Assembly (NCBI GenBank): GCA_050260105.1
Contig: JBLNBR010000013.1
Location: 50,129 to 114,128, forward strand
Source of the DNA: Ignavibacteriales bacterium
GTDB lineage: Bacteria > Bacillota > Sulfobacillia > JABLXB01
Direction of reading: 5' to 3'
DNA: 64,000 nucleotides
Under the pieces are notes generated by a model. The model had not been told where the DNA came from, did no database searches, and saw only the letters and a program-made list of their open reading frames with translations. The first letter of the stretch is position 1, and every line of letters starts with the position of its first letter. The position numbers and the translations under genes are program-made. Positions 18,880 through 64,000 of this stretch are shown here, piece by piece.

Positions 18880-19055
18880 TCCCGCCTGTACGAACATTAG
18901 AGCTGCAGACACTAACTGAAGAGCCTTCACTACTCCGAGCCAGCAGCCCGTATGGGTGGGTCCACCAGCCGCGGGAACTGGCCGAGGCGGAGCCGGGTGG
19001 CTTCGCCGAGGGCGAGCGGGAAACCGCTCTGCCTCCCGTGTTCGGAAAGGAGCCT
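18880..19055 (+). promoter_or_regulatory. Structured 5' leader of the molybdopterin operon: candidate Moco-riboswitch-like element with SD sequestration
   Basis: About 170-nt GC-rich leader after a TTGACA at 18869. Perfect GNRA hairpin GAGCGG-GAAA-CCGCTC, repeated CCGAG elements, and a CCUCCC anti-SD 10 nt upstream of the GGAAAGGAG SD of the first operon gene. The class assignment is not verified. Confidence 0.35.
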
Positions 19056-19322
19056 GTGGAATCATGGGCGCTCTCTGACGCGCAGGGGGCGCCCTCAGTA
19101 TTCGCTGCGACTATCGCTAAGACATGTGAGGTGGGCCGGTTGTCAACGATCGAGGACAGGATCATTGAAGCGGTCAAGTCGGCGGCCAGGGATGGGAGGC
19201 TGCCCTGCAAGGAGGCCTTTGGATTGGCTGCCGCCCTGGGGGTTGCGCCGGCTCTGGTGGGCCGCGCCGCCGATGTTCTCGGCGTGAAGATCAGCGGCTG
19301 CCAGCTCGGTTGTTTCAAGTGA
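19038..19322 (+). CDS. Small Cys-containing hypothetical protein, first gene of the molybdopterin cluster
   Basis: 94-aa ORF whose likely true start is the in-frame GTG at 19056 behind the GGAAAGGAG SD. Ends LPCKEAFGLAAALGVAPALVGRAADVLGVKISGCQLGCFK, 14 nt before moeA. Family not recognised. Confidence 0.5.
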   Translation: MFGKEPVESWALSDAQGAPSVFAATIAKTCEVGRLSTIEDRIIEAVKSAARDGRLPCKEAFGLAAALGVAPALVGRAADVLGVKISGCQLGCFK

Positions 19323-29280: not shown

Positions 29281-30159
29281 ATGAAATACGCCATCCACGA
29301 CGGGCCGGGGATCCGCACAATCGTGTTCCTCAAGGGATGCCCCCTCCGGTGCTGGTGGTGCCACAACCCCGAGGGGCAGGACCCCCGCCCCGAGCTCATC
29401 ATGTGGGAGAACAGGTGCATATCCTGTGGCGAGTGCGCCCGGGTATGCACCGGGGGCGCGATCGTGACCGGAGATGGCCTGCTGCGTTTCCGCAAGGAGG
29501 ACTGCAGGCTGTGCTTCAAATGCGTCGAGGCCTGCCACGCTGGGTCCAGGGCGGTTGCCGGCAGGGAAGTATCCGTTGAAGAGGTAATGGAAGAGATTCT
29601 TAAGGATGCCCCGTTTTATGAGGAGTCGGGCGGCGGGGTGACGTTTTCCGGCGGGGAACCGCTGGCGCAGCCCCAGTTCCTGGAGGCCTTGCTGGCGGAA
29701 TGCGGGGCCCGCGAGATACACACGGCCATCGAGACGACCGGCTGGGCGATACGGGAAGACCTGCTCCGGATATCCCCGAAGGCGAATCTGATCCTCTTCG
29801 ACCTGAAGATCATTGACGAAGCCGAGCACAGGAAGCATACAGGGTCATCCAACGGGCCGATTCTCGACAACCTTGCCGCGTTGACGGCAGTCCACGATAA
29901 CGTCGTCGTCAGGATCCCGGTCGTCCCGGGAGTAAACGATAGTGACCAGCGCGTTCATGAGTTTGGCAGGTTCCTTACGGGGCTGCCCGGGATCAGAGAA
30001 ATCCATCTCCTGCCGTATCACAAGGCGGGGGTGGAGAAATACCGGAGACTCGGCAGGCAGTACCGGCTGCCGTCGCTGGAGCCGCCGGACAGGGCCACGA
30101 TGGAGAGGATATCCGCCACACTGCGGGACTACGGCAAGACCGTCAAGATTGGGGGTTAG
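29281..30159 (+). CDS. Glycyl-radical enzyme activating enzyme (radical SAM, with extra ferredoxin-like 4Fe-4S motifs)
   Basis: N-terminal GCPLRCWWCHNPE radical-SAM/AE motif, two CxxCxxCxxxC clusters (CISCGECARVC, CRLCFKCVEAC), and a glycine-rich SAM site GVTFSGGEP. Confidence 0.85.
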   Translation: MKYAIHDGPGIRTIVFLKGCPLRCWWCHNPEGQDPRPELIMWENRCISCGECARVCTGGAIVTGDGLLRFRKEDCRLCFKCVEACHAGSRAVAGREVSVEEVMEEILKDAPFYEESGGGVTFSGGEPLAQPQFLEALLAECGAREIHTAIETTGWAIREDLLRISPKANLILFDLKIIDEAEHRKHTGSSNGPILDNLAALTAVHDNVVVRIPVVPGVNDSDQRVHEFGRFLTGLPGIREIHLLPYHKAGVEKYRRLGRQYRLPSLEPPDRATMERISATLRDYGKTVKIGG

Positions 30160-30165
30160 CGGACC

Positions 30166-32526
30166 ATGAACGAACGGGTTGCGATGTTGAGACAGAGGAG
30201 CCTCGAGACGAAACCATTCATATCGACAGAGCGGGCCGAACTCATGACCCAATTCCACAGGGAATTCTGCGGCGCGGTATCCGTCCCCGTCCGCCGGGCC
30301 CTGGCGTTCAAGCACCTGATGGAGAACAAGACCATCTACATCGGCGAGGGGGAGCTGATCGTCGGGGAGAGAGGGCCGGAGCCGAAGGCGACCCCGACTT
30401 ACCCCGAGCTGTGCTGCCATAGCCTGCAGGACCTCGACATCCTCAACTCCAGGGAGAAGATACCGTTCAAGGTCAGCCCGGAAGCGCGGCGCGTATACGA
30501 GGACGTGATCATACCGTTCTGGAGCGGTAAGTCCATGCGGGACATGATATTCAGGGAGATGTCGCAGGAGTGGAAGGACGCGTACGACGCCGGCGTCTTC
30601 ACGGAGTTCATGGAGCAGAGGGCCCCCGGCCACACCGTGCTTGACAACAAGATCTACCACAGGGGGTTTCTCGAATTCAAGAAGGAGATCCAGGAATGCC
30701 TGGATAGCCTCGACTATCTGAACGACCCCGAGGCCTTTTCGAAGAGGGAAGAGCTCAAGGCGATGCTCATCTGCTGTGACGCGATCATGATCTTCGCCGA
30801 GCGTCACGCCGCAAAGGCCAGTGAGCTGGCGGCCCGCGAACCGGATCCCGCGAGGCGGCAGGAGCTGGAGCGCATGGCCGCAGTGTGCAGTTGGGTGCCT
30901 GCTCACGCCCCCAGGGATTTCCACGAAGCGCTCCAGGCGTACTGGTTCGTTCACCTGGGCGTAATCACTGAGCTTAACACGTGGGACGCCTTCAACCCCG
31001 GCAGGCTCGACCAGCATCTGTACCCCTTCTACAAGAAGGGCCTCGAGAATGGCTCGCTCACCGTCGAGAAGGCACGCGAGCTGCTTCAATGCTTCTGGGT
31101 CAAGTTCAACAACCAGCCTGCGCCTCCGAAGGTCGGGGTCACGGCGGCGGAGAGCGGCACCTACACCGACTTCGCCAACATCAACCTCGGGGGATTGAAG
31201 CCCGACGGCTCTGACGGCGTCAATGACCTGACATACCTTCTTCTCGAGGTCATCGACGAGATGAGGCTCGTGCAGCCGAGCACCAACATACAGCTCAGCA
31301 AGAAGAATCCTGATAGATTCCTCAAGGCCGCATGCAGGGTGATCCGGAAGGGCTGGGGCCAGCCATCGATATTCAACGCGGACGAGATCGTCCAGGAACT
31401 CCTGAGACAGGGCAAGTCGGTCGAGGACGCCCGGAACGGGGGAGCGAGCGGCTGCGTCGAGACGGGCGCCTTCGGCAAGGAGAGCTACATCCTCACCGGA
31501 TACTTCAACATCGTGAAGATGATCGAACTGGCTCTGAATGACGGCGTGGACCCGAGGACGGGGAAGCAGTTGGGTCCGAAGACCGGCAACCCCCGCCAAT
31601 TCGAGACGTTCGACGAGGTGTGCGACGCTTTCAGAAGGCAGATGAAATACTTCATCGACGTCAAGATCAAGGGCAGCAATATCATCGAGCGGGCGTTCGC
31701 CGCCTACATGCCGTCGCCGTTCCTTTCGATCATCATCGACGACTGCATCAAGAATGGCAGGGACTACAACGACGGTGGCGCGAGGTACAACACGGACTAC
31801 ATCCAGGGCGTGGGCCTCGGAAGCGCCACGGACTGCCTGTCGGCGATCAAGTATCACGTCTACGACCAGGGCAATCTCAGCATGGATGACCTCCTGAAAG
31901 CCATCGGAGAGGACTTCGAGGGACAGGAGAGGGTGCGCCAGCTCCTCCTCAACAAAACGCCCAGGTACGGCAATGACGACGACTACGCCGACGACATCAT
32001 GAGGTTCATCTTCAACAGCTTCTACGATGAGGTGAACGGCAGGAAAAACACCAAGGGCGGTGTCTACAGGATCAACATGCTCCCGACCACCTGCCATGTC
32101 TACTTTGGGTCCGTGGTGGGCGCGATGCCGGACGGGAGGAAGGCCTGGCAGCCGTTGTCCGAGGGGATATCGCCGGTGCAGGGCTCGGACAGGCGAGGAC
32201 CGACGGCTGTGATCAAGTCCGCCTCCAAGATGGACCATGTACGGACGGGCGGCACACTCCTCAACCAGAAGTTCACACCCCAGCTCCTTGAGGGTGAGGA
32301 GGGCATCGAGAGACTGGCCAACCTGGTACGGACGTATTTCAGGCTGGACGGCCATCACATCCAGTTCAACGTGGTGGGCGTGGAGACGCTGCGCGCGGCG
32401 CAGAAGGAACCCGAGAAGTACAGGGACCTCATCGTGCGCGTCGCGGGTTACAGCGATTACTTCTGCGACCTGGGCAAATCGCTTCAGGACGAGATCATCG
32501 CCCGGACCGAGCACGCCAGCTTCTGA
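30166..32526 (+). CDS. Glycyl radical enzyme of the PFL2 / 1,2-eliminase (glycerol dehydratase, HypD, CutC-like) family; substrate unknown
   Basis: 786 aa. Catalytic Cys loop GGASGCVETGAFG and C-terminal glycyl-radical motif RVAGYSDYF. Sits immediately downstream of the activase. Confidence 0.85.
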   Translation: MNERVAMLRQRSLETKPFISTERAELMTQFHREFCGAVSVPVRRALAFKHLMENKTIYIGEGELIVGERGPEPKATPTYPELCCHSLQDLDILNSREKIPFKVSPEARRVYEDVIIPFWSGKSMRDMIFREMSQEWKDAYDAGVFTEFMEQRAPGHTVLDNKIYHRGFLEFKKEIQECLDSLDYLNDPEAFSKREELKAMLICCDAIMIFAERHAAKASELAAREPDPARRQELERMAAVCSWVPAHAPRDFHEALQAYWFVHLGVITELNTWDAFNPGRLDQHLYPFYKKGLENGSLTVEKARELLQCFWVKFNNQPAPPKVGVTAAESGTYTDFANINLGGLKPDGSDGVNDLTYLLLEVIDEMRLVQPSTNIQLSKKNPDRFLKAACRVIRKGWGQPSIFNADEIVQELLRQGKSVEDARNGGASGCVETGAFGKESYILTGYFNIVKMIELALNDGVDPRTGKQLGPKTGNPRQFETFDEVCDAFRRQMKYFIDVKIKGSNIIERAFAAYMPSPFLSIIIDDCIKNGRDYNDGGARYNTDYIQGVGLGSATDCLSAIKYHVYDQGNLSMDDLLKAIGEDFEGQERVRQLLLNKTPRYGNDDDYADDIMRFIFNSFYDEVNGRKNTKGGVYRINMLPTTCHVYFGSVVGAMPDGRKAWQPLSEGISPVQGSDRRGPTAVIKSASKMDHVRTGGTLLNQKFTPQLLEGEEGIERLANLVRTYFRLDGHHIQFNVVGVETLRAAQKEPEKYRDLIVRVAGYSDYFCDLGKSLQDEIIARTEHASF

Positions 32527-32580
32527 CAGTGATATGATAGTACCGTAGGGCGCTGGAGTGCCGATTGGGGTCGAGGTTGA

Positions 32581-32847
32581 GTGAACACACAGGGGAAGAA
32601 AACCGAGAACCGCAAACAGAAGCTTGTCCGGCGGCTCGGAGTGAAGAGCCCCTCTGGTTGCAGACGTATCTCCGACAGCAAGGCAGTCTACCAGATCAGA
32701 GTCACTTGTTCCAGAACCGCACCCAAGAGGTGCTACCGGATCTACTCAGAGGAAGATATCAAGGGCTTCATTGATGCTGACGAAATGTCGCCAGAACTAG
32801 ATAGGAAAGTGACCCGCCTTCTTAACCATGGGCGCCGGGACTCCTGA
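32581..32847 (+). CDS. Hypothetical basic 88-aa ORF at the edge of the low-GC island
   Basis: GTG-initiated Lys/Arg-rich ORF in lower-GC DNA. No homolog recognised. It could be a gene remnant. Confidence 0.25.
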   Translation: MNTQGKKTENRKQKLVRRLGVKSPSGCRRISDSKAVYQIRVTCSRTAPKRCYRIYSEEDIKGFIDADEMSPELDRKVTRLLNHGRRDS

Positions 32848-33065
32848 AAGATTCAGGGTCTTTCTCGACGCGACAATATGGGTTGCAGCAGCAGGAAGTC
32901 CGGCGGGGGGATCGGCCAAGATCATCCAGCTGGCGACGGCCGGATACTTCCGATGGCTCTAACGATAGCGGGCCGGTGGCACTTGGTTGGAGAAAGGGAT
33001 TGTTACACCCTGGATTCATATACCGGCGGGGTGGTGAAGATAAACGTTAGCAAGGGGGTTGTCAA

Positions 33066-34214
33066 ATGAGCAGAATTGCCGTTAGCGCAGACGTTATGCG
33101 CTGGGCTTTGGAGCGCTCTAATCTGACCATTGACGACCTGCAGAAACGGCTTCCAGGGATTCGCCATTGGGTGGACGGCATGAAGCAGCCGACATTGAGG
33201 CAACTAGAGGAACTGGCGAAGGTAACTTCAACGCCGCTCGGATACTTCTTCCTTGAGCAGCCACCGCTAGAGCGATTGCCCATTCCGCACTTTAGAACCC
33301 ATGCCGACGGGGATTTGGGCAGGCCGAGCCCTGACCTTCTTGAGACCATTCAAATGATGCAGCGCCGGCAGTTCTGGATGCGTGACTTCCTGATTGAGCA
33401 AGGCCAGGAACGGCTTGCGTTCGTGGGATCTGCGCAACTTGAAGAACAGGCTGCACTGACCGCGCGAAGCCTGCGTCGTACGCTGGGTCTTCCCGAAGGG
33501 TGGGCGGCTCTTCAGAAGACGTGGACGGATGCCCTGCATGTTCTTCGTGAAGCCATGGAAGACGCAGGGATCCTGGTAGTCGTCAATGGTATTGTCGGGA
33601 ACAACACCCATCGCAAGCTCGATCCACAAGAATTCCGAGGTTTTGTTCTGGTGGACGAGTACGCCCCGCTATTATTTGTGAATGGTGCCGACTACAAGGC
33701 TGCGCAGATGTTTACGCTAGCCCACGAGCTGGCGCACGTGTTCTTTGGAAGCAGTGCTGCATTTGATCTGCGTGAAATGCAACCAGCTCGTGACCCAATG
33801 GAGCAGGCATGTAACCGGGTAGCTGCTGAGTTTCTAGTTCCCGAGACTGAGTTGTGCGAACGTTGGCCCTTTGTCCGAGACCGTTCAGAACCCTTTCAGG
33901 AACTTGCCCGCGCATTCAAAGTCAGCGTTCTCGTAGCCGCACGAAGGGCATTGGACCTTGGATTGATCCAGAAAGATGCCTTCTTCGAATTCTACCATGC
34001 ATATGAGGCCGGCGAGCGACGCGCGGCTGCTCAACGACCAGAGGGGGGGGACTTCTTTGCCAACCAGAACCTACGTGTGGGAAAGCGATTCGCCTCCGCT
34101 GTGATCCAGGCTGCTAAGGAAGGGAGTCTCCTGTACTCTGAAGCATATCAGCTAACCGGACTCTATGGGAAGACTTTCGACACCTACGCATTCTCTCTTG
34201 GATTGGGGGACTAG
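33066..34214 (+). CDS. XRE-type HTH domain fused to an ImmA/IrrE-family (COG2856) zinc metallopeptidase
   Basis: AAGGGGG RBS. N-terminal HTH (SNLTIDDLQKRLPGIRHWVDGMKQPTLRQLEELAKVT) and HEXXH motif TLAHELAHVFF within a DUF955-like peptidase region. Located in a lower-GC island. Confidence 0.8.
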   Translation: MSRIAVSADVMRWALERSNLTIDDLQKRLPGIRHWVDGMKQPTLRQLEELAKVTSTPLGYFFLEQPPLERLPIPHFRTHADGDLGRPSPDLLETIQMMQRRQFWMRDFLIEQGQERLAFVGSAQLEEQAALTARSLRRTLGLPEGWAALQKTWTDALHVLREAMEDAGILVVVNGIVGNNTHRKLDPQEFRGFVLVDEYAPLLFVNGADYKAAQMFTLAHELAHVFFGSSAAFDLREMQPARDPMEQACNRVAAEFLVPETELCERWPFVRDRSEPFQELARAFKVSVLVAARRALDLGLIQKDAFFEFYHAYEAGERRAAAQRPEGGDFFANQNLRVGKRFASAVIQAAKEGSLLYSEAYQLTGLYGKTFDTYAFSLGLGD

Positions 34215-34216
34215 AA

Positions 34217-34717
34217 ATGACTAGCCCCATTTTCGTCCTCGACGCCAATGTATTCATTGAGGCCGCCAACCGGTACTATGCGTTTGACCTTGCTCCTGGG
34301 TTCTGGGAGAGCCTCGTTTATCACGCGAAGAACGGATTCATTCTGAGTATTGATCGGGTTCGGGGGGAATTGGAGCGAGTGCATGATCATCTTGCTGCTT
34401 GGGTGGCAGGAGAGTTTGCGTTCGCTTTCGTCTCGACTGATGAAGTGAGTATCACTGAAGCCTACAGAGAGGTAATGACTTGGGTGCAACATCAGAACCA
34501 GTTCTTGGAGGCCGCAAAGGCAGATTTTGCGAGCGGTGCGGACGGTTGGCTGTTGGCCTTTGCGAGAGCAAGGAACTGCATCATTGTTACCCATGAGGTG
34601 CCAAAACCGGATATCAGAAGGAAGGTTCCGATTCCGAATGTCTGCCAACAATTCGGTATAGGCTACGTCAACACATTTGAGATGCTCCGAAGACTCGGGA
34701 TTAGATGGGTAATCTGA
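34217..34717 (+). CDS. DUF4411-family PIN-like domain protein (putative nuclease/toxin)
   Basis: ATG 3 nt after the ImmA stop with a GGGGGAC RBS. N-terminal IFVLDANVFIEAAN is a PIN-like first strand with conserved Asp. Length 166 aa fits DUF4411. The assignment is from memory of the family. Confidence 0.6.
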   Translation: MTSPIFVLDANVFIEAANRYYAFDLAPGFWESLVYHAKNGFILSIDRVRGELERVHDHLAAWVAGEFAFAFVSTDEVSITEAYREVMTWVQHQNQFLEAAKADFASGADGWLLAFARARNCIIVTHEVPKPDIRRKVPIPNVCQQFGIGYVNTFEMLRRLGIRWVI

Positions 34718-34960
34718 AACAAGGAAACTCGGGCCTGTCTAAACAAGTCCGGTTGCGAGTGCACTGACAAGCCTGCGTAATGAGATTTCCCCACCGACTG
34801 GATCAACGATGCCATCCTGCCTCTCAAACTACCCCCCTGACACATACGGGCAAGTCTCTCGGACCAATGTGACTGGGCAGAATTCGAATCGTTGTAGACT
34901 CGTGGGCACAGGAAATGGGCTTGCATGCGACCGCGAACGATCGGCTCCCACCAATCGCAC

Positions 34961-35037
34961 ATCATTCGGATCTGCCGCGTTGACAGGCATTTTGCCGGGT
35001 GTTACGATGGGGTTGGTAGGTGCTAGATCCGAACATT
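34961..35037 (+). promoter_or_regulatory. pur operon promoter bracketed by PurBox-like inverted half-sites
   Basis: TTGACA (about 34980), 17-nt spacer, TACGAT (about 35003). Upstream half-site ATCATTCGGATCT (about 34961-34973) and downstream AGATCCGAACATT (about 35025-37), which matches the Firmicute PurBox AWWWCCGAACWWT at 12/13 positions. Together they form an inverted repeat. Confidence 0.45.
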
Positions 35038-35073
35038 TCCCCCAACCCTCATGAAGCCGCAGGAGGGACAGCC

Positions 35074-35688
35074 GTGGACAAGGCGCAGGATAGACCGCTT
35101 ATCACCATCATCATGGGAAGCGACTCCGACCTCCCCGTCATGAACGAGGCAGCCAAGACGTTGGAGTCATTCGATGTCGGGTTCGACTTGCACATCGCCT
35201 CGGCTCACAGGACCCCCGGGTTGGTCGAGGATATCGTGAAACAGGCCACTGACAGGGGCGCCCGCGTCATCATCGCCGGCGCCGGCCTGAGCGCGCACCT
35301 GCCGGGGGTTATCGCGTCCCACACGACTCTTCCGGTGATCGGCGTGCCGCTCAAGGCGGGCGCTTTGAATGGAGTCGATGCCCTCTACTCCATAGTGCAG
35401 ATGCCCCCCGGGATCCCCGTCGCGACAGTGGGGATAGACGCGGCAAGGAATGCCGCGCTGCTCGCGGTGCAGATACTTGCAGCGGGGGCCTGGGAACGCG
35501 GTGACGACGACGCCGGTGATGACCGGACCCCCGTGTCTGGAACCGGCAGCGTCGAGCTTCCGGCTGCAGGCGGTCTTGCCGCGAGACTGGCCCGGAGGCT
35601 CCGCGAGTACCGTGATGGGCTGGCGGCCTCGGTGGAGGCGAAGGAGCGGCGGCTTCAAACGAAGGGATACGGGGGGTCCGAGGGATGA
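35074..35688 (+). CDS. purE: N5-carboxyaminoimidazole ribonucleotide mutase PurE
   Basis: GTG start with an AGGAGGG RBS (the ORF's longer 5' extension overlaps the promoter). [12 protein letters not shown] motif. Has a C-terminal insertion (GDDDAGDD...) relative to typical PurE. Confidence 0.85.
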
Positions 35689-48927: not shown

Positions 48928-50520
48928 CTAGAGGGACTGACCGGTTACGTCCCGCCGGATTCCCGGTTTCGGCATGTAGCCTTCACTCTGCAGTGCTTCG
49001 AGCGCCTCCGAGTATTTCGACCGGTCCACTATGAGATGCCTCGGCCCTATCTCGCCAAGAACGAATGGCTGCATCCTCTTCGACGCCTTGATCTGGTTCG
49101 CCAATTCCTCCGTATCGCAATGCAGGACCAGGGCATCTACGAACTCGACCCTCCCGTAACCCTTCGACCATTCCTCTATGGAATAGGACACGTTCTGCGG
49201 TATATCGTTCTTGCTGTGCCGCCTCAGGAACGCCATTATGGACTGGGAGCTCATGCCCGATGAGAGCGCGCGATACGTGGACTGGCGCGTGATCTTGTAG
49301 ATGAGCATCTGATCGGGCTTGACCAGGTCGGCGAGTTGCTCGACCTTCCAGAGTATCGAAGGCTCGATGTTCGCGGGGACCAGCATCTCGAACGTCCCCT
49401 GCAGGAAGAACGAGTCCTCGAGCGGGACATCGTTGAACGCCTCCTCAGGGGAGGAAACCGGCCTGCCCGTGACCAGTGAGGCGAGTACCCGCCCCGGTGC
49501 GGTGAGCCTCAGGGCCGGACCGGCAGCGGTATCGATTCTCGCAAGCACCCCTGCGTAGGAGAGCATCCTGATCGCTTTCCAGAGTCTAGTCTCGAGGCCG
49601 TGCCAGGAATGTTCCAGGCTCAGGTATTCCATCTCCTCCAGGAGCGAGTTGAAGGAGACCCACCGGCCTTCAGGGACGTGGTCCATGATGGCGAGCATCG
49701 TCTGGACGTCCGGATCCGGCTGCACCCACTCTTCGAAGAGGGAGGAGAACACGTCCATCGCCTTCGAGGGCGCGGGCACGACCACCCACTCCTCGACCTT
49801 GGGTGACACCTGTATCTCGCGCTGTTCGGTTTCGGTTACCAGCCCGTGCCTCTTGCAGTAATTGATGATGAACGCGAGGTGCAGCGGGTGCACTGCCTGG
49901 AACGACTCGGCCTCGTCCGGCAGTTCGTCGGGCAGGCCGAGGGACGAGATGATGTCCCTCTGGGATCTCCTGTAGATCGTCCCGCCCTGGGCCATCTTGA
50001 CCTGGTTCTTCTTCAGATACGAAAGGAACAGGTGGATATGCCTCGTCGGCACGATGGGTTCGGGGTCCGTCCCCCTCACGGTGACGTCCTGCGCGACAAT
50101 GTGGTTGAGAATCGAGGGCATGAGCACGCGGACCACCGGGGCGCGCAAATCACCGGGTATGAAGTATATCTGCCTGTAATTCTCCCGCCCGGTGTATACG
50201 AGTCCCGCCCTGACCAGCGTGTCCAGGACCTTTGCGCCGTTTCTCCGCCACTTCCTCGTCAGCTCGTTGAGTTTCTGATGACACTTCTCGACAACGATGC
50301 CCCTGCCCCCACCACAGAGGGCCACCATCTTCAGGGCCGTGAGCTCCTCCTCAGTCAAGGAAGACACGACGTGCGAGAGGTAGGTGACCTCCTTGATGCG
50401 GCCGGGAAGCCACCCCAGCAGATCCTGTGGTACGGACCTGCCCTCGAAACCGAAATCCCTGGCGATCCTCAACACGTGATTCGGAGGCAGGCGCCTCAGG
50501 CATTCAGTCAGATCCATCAT
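48928..50520 (-). CDS. XPB-associated conserved protein (helicase-associated partner of bacterial XPB/ERCC3 homologs)
   Basis: 530-aa ORF immediately downstream of, and overlapping (ATGA), the XPB helicase gene. No catalytic motif recognised by eye. The arrangement parallels the partner genes found beside bacterial and archaeal XPB. Confidence 0.55.
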   Translation of the reverse strand: MMDLTECLRRLPPNHVLRIARDFGFEGRSVPQDLLGWLPGRIKEVTYLSHVVSSLTEEELTALKMVALCGGGRGIVVEKCHQKLNELTRKWRRNGAKVLDTLVRAGLVYTGRENYRQIYFIPGDLRAPVVRVLMPSILNHIVAQDVTVRGTDPEPIVPTRHIHLFLSYLKKNQVKMAQGGTIYRRSQRDIISSLGLPDELPDEAESFQAVHPLHLAFIINYCKRHGLVTETEQREIQVSPKVEEWVVVPAPSKAMDVFSSLFEEWVQPDPDVQTMLAIMDHVPEGRWVSFNSLLEEMEYLSLEHSWHGLETRLWKAIRMLSYAGVLARIDTAAGPALRLTAPGRVLASLVTGRPVSSPEEAFNDVPLEDSFFLQGTFEMLVPANIEPSILWKVEQLADLVKPDQMLIYKITRQSTYRALSSGMSSQSIMAFLRRHSKNDIPQNVSYSIEEWSKGYGRVEFVDALVLHCDTEELANQIKASKRMQPFVLGEIGPRHLIVDRSKYSEALEALQSEGYMPKPGIRRDVTGQSL

Positions 50521-62766: not shown

Positions 62767-64000
62767 GTGCGCCCGGCAGGGCGCGTTCACTAGTGGGTGA
62801 GAGTCCCACACAGGCCCGACAGGGGGAACTGTTAGCCGGACGGCAAGGGTGTCCACTGTGAGGTGGAATCTGGAGGAAGCCGCAGGCAAAGCGCTGGCCT
62901 GACGAACAGGAATCGCATACGAGGCGGCCACGCTGGGTGAGGAGGCAAATATCTTCAAAGCCCGATACCTGTACGGAAAGCGTGGACGTAGATGCGGCGG
63001 GCATAAGCGTGAAGGTGGACGCGCAATACCCGGGGAGGCCTGCCAGCTGGCCAAGGGCTATGGTCGTCGAGAGGCGGCGAGATAGGCTGGCAGGAGTCAG
63101 CAGAGGGCGTAGTAAGTCCATCGACCGGACCGAAGGCCCGAACATGAAGCATGGGATGGGGGACTTGAATTCCGATGGCGACAGGAGACGCAGACAGTAT
63201 GGCTGAGATGCCCGAATCCCGCCCTGAGGGTAGCGGACGGAATCCGCGAGAGCAAGGGATGGGTGCGTCAAGCGCCACGGCAATGGGAGGGACCTCCCAA
63301 CCGGAAGCGGAGCGGATGATGGAAGCGGTGGTCGAACGCGAGAACATGATAGCGGCGTGGAAGCGAGTGAAGGCGAACAAAGGGGCGGCGGGGGTAGACG
63401 GGATGACCGTGGACCAACTGACGCCATACCTTCGCGAGCACTGGCCGCGAATCAGGGAAGAACTGTTGGCGGGGCGGTGCGTACCGTCACCCGTACGGGG
63501 TGTAGAGATACCGAAGCCCGGCGGGAGAGGGATGCGGAAGTTAGGCATACCGACGGTGTTGGACCGGCTGATACAACAGGCGCTGCAGCAGGTTTTGACG
63601 CCCATCTTTGACCCCGGGTTTTCGGAATCGAGTTACGGATTCCGGCCTGGCCGTGGCGCGCACCAAGCGATACTCAAGGCGCGGTCATACGTAGCGGAGG
63701 GTAGGCGCTGGGTGGTCGATCTCGATCTGGCTCAATTCTTTGACCGAGTGAACCACGACATCCTGATGGCGAGGGTGGCGCGGAAGGTCAAGGACAAGCG
63801 GGTGTTACGGCTCATCCGCCGGTATCTTCAGGCGGGGATGATGGAAGGGGGTCTAGAGTCGGCGCGCCGAGAGGGCACACCGCAGGGCGGGCCGTTATCG
63901 CCACTTCTATCGAATATCCTGCTTGACGATCTTGACAAGGAACTGGAGAGGCGAGGGCATGCGTTCTGCCGGTACGCCGATGATGCGAACGTGTACGTAC
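62767..64000 (+). mobile_element. Group II intron (5' part; continues beyond the window end), bacterial terminator-targeting (class C-like) insertion
   Basis: Begins GTGCGCCCGGCAGGGCG, which matches the GUGYG + CCnnnAGGG 5' consensus of group II introns (compare Ll.LtrB GUGCGCCCAGAUAGGGUG). About 430 nt of structured RNA precedes the intron-encoded RT ORF. It sits immediately 3' of an intrinsic terminator. Confidence 0.75.
63199..64000 (+). CDS. Group II intron-encoded reverse transcriptase/maturase (partial; runs off the window)
   Basis: ATG at about 63199. RT domain 0-5 motifs: [75 protein letters not shown], and the YADDANV (YADD) catalytic box. Absent from the ORF track because there is no stop within the window. 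Confidence 0.85.

Follow-up and report, generated by a model that had tools for sequence, protein, structure and literature searches.

Between the gene of a glycyl-radical enzyme (GRE) and the purE gene of a metagenome-assembled genome (MAG; GenBank assembly GCA_050260105.1, contig JBLNBR010000013.1) lies a low-GC block of about 2.4 kb, in which two genes on the forward strand encode a 382-aa protein with a helix-turn-helix (HTH) domain and an ImmA/IrrE-type zinc peptidase domain, and a 166-aa DUF4411 protein. The question raised by this locus is what the two proteins do together, and whether the block is native to the genome. It was treated within a stretch of 64,000 nucleotides (positions 50,129 to 114,128 of the contig, forward strand), which is called the window below and from whose first letter all positions are counted. 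An initial annotation, made from the sequence alone, had proposed a toxin-antitoxin (TA) or abortive-infection-like module. This proposal was supported: the block is best read as a horizontally acquired, self-contained type II TA module of the VapBC52/RosmerTA-like kind, with a probability of roughly 75%. The VapBC52 kind is assigned because of the protein families, the homology of each protein to a chain of PDB entry 9vzy, the predicted structures, the invariant motifs, the linkage of the genes, the defence and plasmid contexts of their relatives, and the foreign composition of the DNA. The first gene is called the antitoxin gene and the second the toxin gene throughout.

Identity of the two proteins

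The two open reading frames (ORFs) were found as initially described, at 33066-34214 and 34217-34717 with 2 nt between them, and the HELAH motif of the first product was intact. The second product had been called a DUF4411 protein, and it was matched over its full length by Pfam family PF14367 (E 9e-53). Both products matched chains of one PDB entry, 9vzy, in which chain A is listed as 'HTH cro/C1-type domain-containing protein' (393 aa) and chain D as 'DUF4411 family protein'. This entry, like 9vzz, represents VapBC52 (Rv2515c/Rv2514c) of Mycobacterium tuberculosis (Singh et al., Nucleic Acids Research, June 2026; PMC13273310). The antitoxin was aligned with chain A over residues 6-351 at about 32% identity (E 1.3e-19 with the single sequence, 1.7e-24 with a profile). 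The toxin matched chain D at about 31% identity (E 1.1e-7 with the single sequence, 2.3e-11 with a profile), and the profile alignment ran from position 4 to 151 and took in the N-terminal catalytic Asp.

The structure of the toxin was predicted with AlphaFold2 (AF2) at a mean predicted local distance difference test score (pLDDT) of 92.6 and had a PIN fold; all of the top PDB matches obtained with Foldseek were VapC/FitB PIN toxins. Residues 7-18 read VLDANVFIEAAN. Among 78 relatives, D9 (34241-34243), D24, D109, T125 and E127 were invariant, and E51 was retained in 76. The PIN-like fold assumed at the outset was thus borne out by the confidence of the model, by its VapC/FitB neighbours and by the presence of D9, D109 and E127 in every relative.

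In the antitoxin, residues 166-295 were assigned to Pfam Peptidase_M78/ImmA-IrrE (PF06114, E 4e-16). The AF2 model (pLDDT 79.5) consists of a 5-helix HTH, a linker of low confidence, a core that is alpha/beta and then helical, and four C-terminal helices. Residues 244-377 are all-helical in this model, and no GAF-like beta sheet is present. The best Foldseek matches of the model were PprI bound to single-stranded DNA (ssDNA), IrrE, and PrpR of M. tuberculosis. The N-terminal domain had been described as an XRE-type HTH. The Pfam family HTH_3 remained below its threshold (E 0.021, 15 bits versus a cutoff of 23), but the assignment is supported by the predicted structure, by a Foldseek search with the domain alone, which returned the Xre antitoxin 3omt, lambda repressor 1lli and C.Csp231I 4jcx, and by alignment with the HTH N-terminal domain of VapB52. 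The NCBIfam equivalog spr1629 (NF052239) was tried as a name for the antitoxin and rejected, since it reached 46 bits against a cutoff of 335 and covered residues 214-313 only.

The functional residues of the antitoxin were compared with those of VapB52 and within a set of 51 relatives. H220, E221, H224 and E246 were invariant in all 51 and align with H216/H220/E245 of VapB52. The linker (residues 66-88) had a pLDDT below 50 and contains F76-R77, which aligns with the FR motif of VapB52; R77 was invariant in all relatives and F76 was found in 48. A boundary motif of the C-terminal domain, GGDF(F/Y), aligns with VapB52 as well. The Cys by which the peptidase of VapB52 is auto-inhibited and which serves as a fourth zinc ligand, its 'cysteine switch', has no counterpart: F233 aligns with VapB52 C229 (the register was checked by counting), and both F233 and D234 were invariant in the 51 relatives. 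A nearby Cys, C249, is conserved but occurs in VapB52 too, and it is a residue other than that of the switch.

Comparison with VapBC52 and other known systems

VapC52 is a PIN tRNase, and VapB52 consists of three domains (PMC13273310). The 5-helix HTH domain at the N-terminus is needed to bind the toxin, the middle domain is a peptidase of the IrrE type in which zinc is held by HEXXH, a Glu and the cysteine-switch Cys, and the 4-helix C-terminal domain occludes the toxin's active site in a 1:2 complex. With ssDNA as the inducer, the N-terminal domain of VapB52 is removed by HEXXH-dependent self-cleavage close to a conserved FR motif of the linker that joins the N-terminal and middle domains. 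Mycobacterium smegmatis overexpressing VapC52 resisted phage D29, and earlier work is cited in the same paper for VapBC52 as a functional TA system (PMC13273310).

The window pair shares with VapBC52 the homology of both genes, the position of the antitoxin gene in front, the three-domain antitoxin, HEXXH with the additional Glu, the linker FR motif, and a DUF4411 PIN protein whose catalytic Asp lies in the N-terminal strand. The structural neighbours of the antitoxin model (IrrE/PprI, PrpR, Xre HTH) are also those listed for VapB52 (PMC13273310). The two systems differ in the switch position, where C229 is replaced by an invariant Phe in the window subfamily, and in length: the window antitoxin has 382 aa, VapB52 has 415, and the disordered 23-residue N-terminal extension of VapB52 is missing. 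Furthermore, the clade of the window pair has a 2-nt spacer or a 4-nt overlap between the genes, occurs in environmental, non-actinobacterial hosts, and often lies in type I restriction-modification (R-M) operons.

The combination of an HTH-DUF955 gene with DUF4411.1 had been predicted as a three-component TA system by Matelska, Steczkiewicz and Ginalski (Nucleic Acids Research 2017; PMC5499597). As in that prediction, which concerned non-actinobacterial phyla, DUF4411.1 is found downstream of a fused DUF955 (COG2856/ImmA)-HTH gene; whereas the earlier work was bioinformatic prediction, the present data add the linkage in 71 of 71 loci, the junction geometry, the invariance of motifs and the association with R-M genes. 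The neighbourhood was thus already predicted in 2017 and a homologous pair was characterised in 2026; the window pair is a member of a largely environmental clade without the cysteine switch. The initial description of the pairing as experimentally uncharacterised is therefore out of date, since the gene combination had been predicted (PMC5499597) and the homologous VapBC52 characterised (PMC13273310).

RosmerTA (RmrT/RmrA; Millman et al. 2022; Ernits et al. 2023, PMC10440598) has anti-phage activity under native promoters, and in the NetFlax D25 hub an ImmA-type antitoxin is combined with swappable toxins, PIN-like ones included (PMC10440598). The ImmA-type zinc peptidase antitoxin, often with an N-terminal HTH, and the interchangeable toxins are features in common, and models of RmrA match the window antitoxin. 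These matches are weak, however (15 models of PADLOC v2, E 5e-14 to 4e-3, mostly confined to residues ~184-315; PDLC03947 and PDLC03953 cover residues ~35-304). DUF4411 matches no RmrT, and the characterised RmrT proteins act in other ways, such as membrane depolarisation. PADLOC v2 also returned a partial capP match to the antitoxin (E 4e-14). The antitoxin was thus caught weakly as RmrA or capP and the toxin was missed, so that defence finders of that vintage probably overlook the pair.

With CapP/CapH and IrrE(PprI)/DdrO the antitoxin shares the peptidase fold, the zinc site, the F|R site (CapH is cut by CapP at F82|R83) and the Cys-less switch loop (as in IrrE), and the structure that it matches best is PprI bound to ssDNA. 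The cysteine switch is lacking in IrrE and in some CapP homologs, and IrrE is still stimulated by ssDNA. Those systems employ a separate peptidase and substrate with transcription as the output, whereas the window protein has its HTH-linker substrate fused to the peptidase, toxin release as the proposed output and no GAF domain; no DdrO/CapH-like gene was found adjacent to the pair. Canonical VapBC systems have the PIN-fold toxin in common with the window pair and differ on the antitoxin side, where small (8-13 kDa) DNA-binding VapB proteins of the AbrB, RHH or Phd type form 2:2 or 4:4 complexes; the window antitoxin has 382 aa and a peptidase core. The ImmA/ImmR switch has a separate ImmR and belongs to integrative and conjugative elements or prophages with an integrase, in contrast to the window, where the HTH is fused and neither a further HTH gene nor an integrase, att repeats or a tRNA gene was present in or beside the block.

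The gene of the PrrC anticodon nuclease reportedly lies within the type Ic R-M locus EcoprrI (Levitz 1990; Kaufmann 2000). The position between hsdS and hsdR, seen in 14 of 39 related loci, and the probable nature of the nuclease as a tRNA-cleaving suicide enzyme are shared with it. There is no relation between the proteins themselves, PrrC is kept silent by the R-M enzyme whereas the pair has a dedicated antitoxin, and the copy in the window is without R-M neighbours.

Linkage of the two genes and their genomic contexts

A total of 80 metagenomic loci encoding a DUF4411 relative were compared. An ImmA-like gene was located directly upstream on the same strand in all 71 informative loci (50 of 50 with at least 1.2 kb of upstream sequence, 21 of 21 with 150-1,199 nt), at 55-76% identity. 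Judged from these sequences, the pairing is obligate and extends across many phyla; together with the annotated plasmids described below, this answers the check on DUF4411-ImmA linkage for which the initial annotation had asked.

In the window, the stop codon TAG of the antitoxin gene (34212-34214) is followed by 'AA' and the toxin ATG at 34217. A G-rich Shine-Dalgarno sequence precedes each gene, that of the toxin gene being GGGGGA. In 75 of 77 related loci the junction fell between -4 and +12 nt, the genes overlapping by 4 nt in 32 loci and by 1 nt in 7, and being separated by 2 nt in 31 and by 3-12 nt in 5. This geometry indicates translational coupling that is apparently conserved.

Type I R-M genes flanked the pair in 14 of the 39 loci of at least 4 kb, in the order hsdM-hsdS-pair-hsdR on one strand, and AbiEi/AbiEii genes were also found beside the pair in three of the loci; otherwise the flanks differed between loci. 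Relatives of 31-43% identity were found on 47 plasmids, of which 23 are conjugative; their hosts include Sinorhizobium, Rhizobium, Enterobacter and Gordonia. In three annotated plasmid regions an XRE/ImmA gene of about 380 aa overlaps the DUF4411 gene by 4 nt and is surrounded by other TA modules. A relative was recorded in 2 of 50,697 phage records, both weak, and a phage-borne origin of the pair was rejected as unsupported on this basis.

Some of the metagenomic loci had peculiarities of their own. In L007 (4844-11904), and also in L004 and L025, the pair and AbiEi/AbiEii are stacked between hsdS and hsdR as a three-system defence cassette. Downstream of the pair in L014 (6631-10161), HsdR is fused at its C-terminal end to a Schlafen/AlbA_2 domain (PF04326, E 1e-18), which is unusual for a type I restriction subunit. 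An Aconitase_C-type (LeuD-like) gene was seen near the pair in seven loci (L015, L017, L022, L029, L031, L040 and L068), which suggests one lineage with the module at a fixed housekeeping site and not in an R-M operon.

Composition and origin of the block

The GC content of the block was 0.543 over 2,438 nt, compared with a mean of 0.624 (standard deviation 0.024) for all windows of equal length slid along the 64 kb. Only 0.12% of these 2,438-nt windows had a GC content as low as that of the block, and every one of them overlaps it, so that it is the lowest-GC 2.4 kb of the window. The GC content at third codon positions (GC3) was 0.577 in the antitoxin gene and 0.569 in the toxin gene, and 0.76-0.85 in the neighbouring guaA, GRE and purE/B/C genes. 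The dip reported initially is therefore real (54.3%), but the surroundings are at about 62% (window mean 62.4%; flanks about 60-65%) and not at about 67%.

In order to compare the site between genomes, PurB was used as universal-neighbour anchor with one genome per species, which gave 36 PurB-anchored genomes. A single close relative was found, a MAG labelled Bacillota bacterium (L109) with a PurB 87% identical; all others were at 56% or below. The order guaA, GRE activase, GRE, slot, purE, purB, purC is kept in L109 at about 77-84% nucleotide identity, and its slot (L109 3800-6800) holds about 3 kb of unrelated DNA of host GC content. Nucleotide homology between the two genomes ends at about 32516-32526 (the GRE stop codon is at 32526) and restarts at 34965, in agreement with the bounds of 32527-34960 given initially. 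The pair was at the GRE-purE locus in none of the 36 PurB-anchored genomes, and its absence from these and from the L109 slot speaks against a syntenic core gene pair. The nearest homologs of either protein reach only about 68-73% identity and are scattered across several phyla (labels Nitrospirota, Desulfarculus, Planctomycetes, Phycisphaerae and Sedimentisphaerales), which likewise points to a foreign origin.

Because L109 keeps the flanks but has other, unrelated genes in between, the pair is an acquired, accessory one; the block is foreign DNA lodged between two housekeeping operons, and the GRE-purE slot varies within this lineage. The horizontal acquisition suggested at the outset is supported by this replacement together with the anomaly in GC and GC3. 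No integrase gene was found in or beside the block and no tRNA or tmRNA integration target in the window; att-like direct or inverted repeats at the block ends were searched for and rejected, as only short matches at chance level were obtained. The arrival of the block is thus not accounted for by an integrase, a tRNA or att-like repeats.

The L109 slot carries a gene for an M24-like peptidase and, on the opposite strand, an ORF that on inspection looks like a sigma54-type activator gene; both are missing from the 64-kb window, and the two may be a native partner and regulator of the GRE operon. A tblastn match of the activator ORF to window 34964-35238 was rejected as artefactual, the antisense ORF being over-extended and overlapping purE. 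In L082, a more distant relative from the Bacillota, guaA directly adjoins purE; judged from this genome, GRE and its activase (window 29281-32526) may be an older insertion at the guaA-purE junction.

Evaluation of the TA interpretation and its alternatives

Several results weigh against the interpretation of the block as a VapBC52/RosmerTA-like TA module. The toxin gave no match at E <= 0.1 to any PADLOC v2 model, RmrT included, and the RmrA matches of the antitoxin lie mostly over the peptidase domain only. A promoter-like site 5' of the antitoxin gene on the forward strand was not found by the promoter scan, and no defence genes adjoin the pair in the window. Toxicity, neutralisation, trigger and RNA target would all be carried over from a homolog of about 30% identity. 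For that homolog, phage protection was seen on overexpression of the toxin and was abolished by co-expression of VapB52 (PMC13273310), so a native defence role is not firm even for VapBC52. Finally, the cysteine switch that is central to the activation model of VapB52 is absent here (F233), and the trigger or its coupling to cleavage may differ.

Three other explanations were considered, and each is less well supported than the TA module. A purely selfish addiction or stabilisation system, that is, a plasmid-maintenance cassette landed in the chromosome, with a peptidase for antitoxin turnover or autoregulation and without any part in phage defence, would agree with the 47 plasmids on which relatives lie beside maintenance TA genes (PIN/RHH, ParD, GNAT/DUF1778, HipA), with the lack of adjoining defence genes in the window, and with the restriction of the VapBC52 defence data to toxin overexpression. 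It is nevertheless judged rather unlikely: 36% of the longer environmental loci lie in type I R-M operons, some with AbiE, which is the behaviour of a defence island; RosmerTA systems with ImmA-type antitoxins are anti-phage under native promoters; and addiction and defence roles can coexist in one module.

That the pair is the leftover immunity or regulatory module of a decayed integrated element, in which an ImmA/ImmR-like anti-repressor controls element genes and DUF4411 is an accessory nuclease, is suggested by the ImmA/IrrE family of the peptidase, the foreign nature of the block and the apparent gene debris at its 5' end. The block holds no integrase, att-like repeats, tRNA or other element gene, though, the HTH is fused to the peptidase with no separate ImmR, the strict pair travels through many unrelated contexts, and relatives were seen in just 2 of 50,697 phage records, which makes this origin very improbable. 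Least credible is a host DNA-damage regulator of the IrrE/PprI-DdrO or CapP-CapH type that controls neighbours such as the pur operon or GRE, with the PIN protein in RNA processing or repair. It would agree with the top structural neighbours of the middle domain (PprI/IrrE, the ssDNA complex included, and PrpR) and with the capP match (E 4e-14), but there is no separate DdrO/CapH-like substrate gene, the C-terminal part is all-helical in the AF2 model without a GAF-like sheet, and the composition is foreign. Moreover, the closest relative has the same flanking operons without the pair, whose obligate partner is a PIN toxin and not any regulated operon.

The interpretation as a TA or abortive-infection-like module was therefore retained: the searches for a missing GC dip, a toxin without PIN fold or acidic residues, unlinked homologs and syntenic conservation as core genes all gave the opposite result.

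Proposed mode of action

The upstream antitoxin gene is translationally coupled to the toxin gene. By analogy with the M. tuberculosis homolog, the HTH and C-terminal helical domains of the antitoxin would clamp the toxin dimer and block its active site, the HTH domain presumably binding the toxin and the C-terminal domain occluding the active site as described for VapB52 (PMC13273310). The middle domain, an IrrE/ImmA-type zinc peptidase, would be the built-in sensor. A stress cue, going by the homologs and by CapP/IrrE most likely ssDNA from phage replication or DNA damage, would trigger the peptidase, which would then cut its own linker at the conserved Phe-Arg; cleavage of the window protein at F76|R77 is predicted from the aligned motifs. 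In this way the toxin-binding domain would be detached, and the freed DUF4411 protein, acting as metal-dependent RNase, would by homology cut tRNA, most likely in the anticodon or variable loops, and stop translation. The outcome may be abortive infection or growth arrest, and addiction with post-segregational killing when the module is carried on plasmids.

Since Phe replaces the cysteine-switch Cys in the window subfamily, gating as in IrrE is expected: the Cys-less peptidase is probably controlled by ssDNA stimulating cleavage and not by unlocking of the zinc site. A doubtful alternative is that the clade with Phe-Asp, which often lies between hsdS and hsdR, answers to another cue, for instance a neighbouring type I R-M enzyme inactivated by anti-restriction proteins of phages (a PrrC-like 'guard'), or that self-cleavage is gated by Asp or assisted by the substrate.

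Features of the block and its surroundings

The features of the locus are compiled in Table 1. The first 540 nt of the block hold an orphan 88-aa ORF and a 44-aa ORF, MGAGTPERFRVFLDATIWVAAAGSPAGGSAKIIQLATAGYFRWL. The 88-aa ORF had no match in Pfam, PADLOC or NCBIfam and no homolog but itself among 5.8 billion proteins. The 44-aa ORF is similar to PIN_3 toxins over their first ~35 residues, at a Pfam E-value of 0.11, which is below significance. Neither ORF recurs in the 80 related loci. The 88-aa ORF was considered as third component or antitoxin of the module and rejected, having no family match and no homolog and being absent from the related loci. The region of the two ORFs may be debris of an older TA system that was cut short on arrival of the ImmA-DUF4411 pair.

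Table 1. Features of the low-GC block and of its right border (window coordinates)
Feature	Position	Strand	Evidence or remark
Low-GC inserted block ('island')	32527..34964		Between GRE stop codon and purE promoter; GC content and homology break
5' part of block	32581..32962	+	88-aa ORF (32581-32847) overlapping 44-aa ORF (32828-32962)
Antitoxin gene, 382 aa: HTH, IrrE-type Zn-peptidase, helical C-terminal domain (VapB52-like, RmrA-like)	33066..34214	+	Pfam, 9vzy, AF2
N-terminal 5-helix XRE-type HTH domain, residues 1-65	33066..33260	+	AF2 helices 8-17, 22-26, 32-36, 44-54, 58-62
Phe76-Arg77 'FR' motif in LPIPHFRT; predicted self-cleavage site	33291..33296	+	Linker between N-terminal and middle domains
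HELAH zinc-binding/catalytic motif (residues 220-224; H220, E221, H224)	33723..33737	+	Third zinc ligand E246 at 33801-33803
F233-D234	33762..33767	+	Position of the VapB52/CapP 'cysteine switch'; no cysteine
C-terminal 4-helix domain, residues ~327-382	34044..34211	+	AF2 helices 330-338, 340-351, 357-364, 369-377
Toxin gene, 166 aa: DUF4411 PIN-like nuclease (VapC52-like)	34217..34717	+	Pfam, 9vzy, AF2
purE promoter-like site, TTGACA-17-TACGAT with TG	34980..35008	+	Promoter scan; just right of block edge

Near the antitoxin gene the promoter scan gave just one minus-strand site and the purE promoter. The latter site is kept in L109, where homology has restarted, and is a property of the host and not of the block. 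No second copies of the pair and no R-M or AbiE partners were found in the 64-kb window.

No Rfam family was matched within the block, and the three Rfam matches of the window all lie elsewhere. Near the right end, at 62852-63138 (+), are the group II intron domains D1-D4-3 (148 bits) and D1-D4-1 (52.7 bits); another mobile element is therefore present in the window. At 18923-19065 (+) a molybdenum/tungsten cofactor (Moco) riboswitch aptamer was detected (46.6 bits versus a gathering score of 36). The source MAG is named 'Ignavibacteriales bacterium' by NCBI. After L109, the best PurB matches were from Clostridiales/Thermincola (about 56%), and an Ignavibacteria MAG reached 51%; going by these PurB matches, the taxonomic label or the binning of the contig looks doubtful.

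Significance

With this analysis, two generically named genes of the genome can be annotated as probably forming a tRNase module that stress or phage would trigger, and the GRE-purE junction emerges as a variable site open to foreign DNA. A defence role of the family gains independent support at the genomic level from the longer loci, about a third of which lie inside type I R-M operons, and the environmental relatives supply context that is missing from the single study in M. tuberculosis. The cysteine switch, proposed as the mechanism of activation, is not universal in the family. A recently characterised family is extended in this way, while the picture of how such systems work is unchanged.

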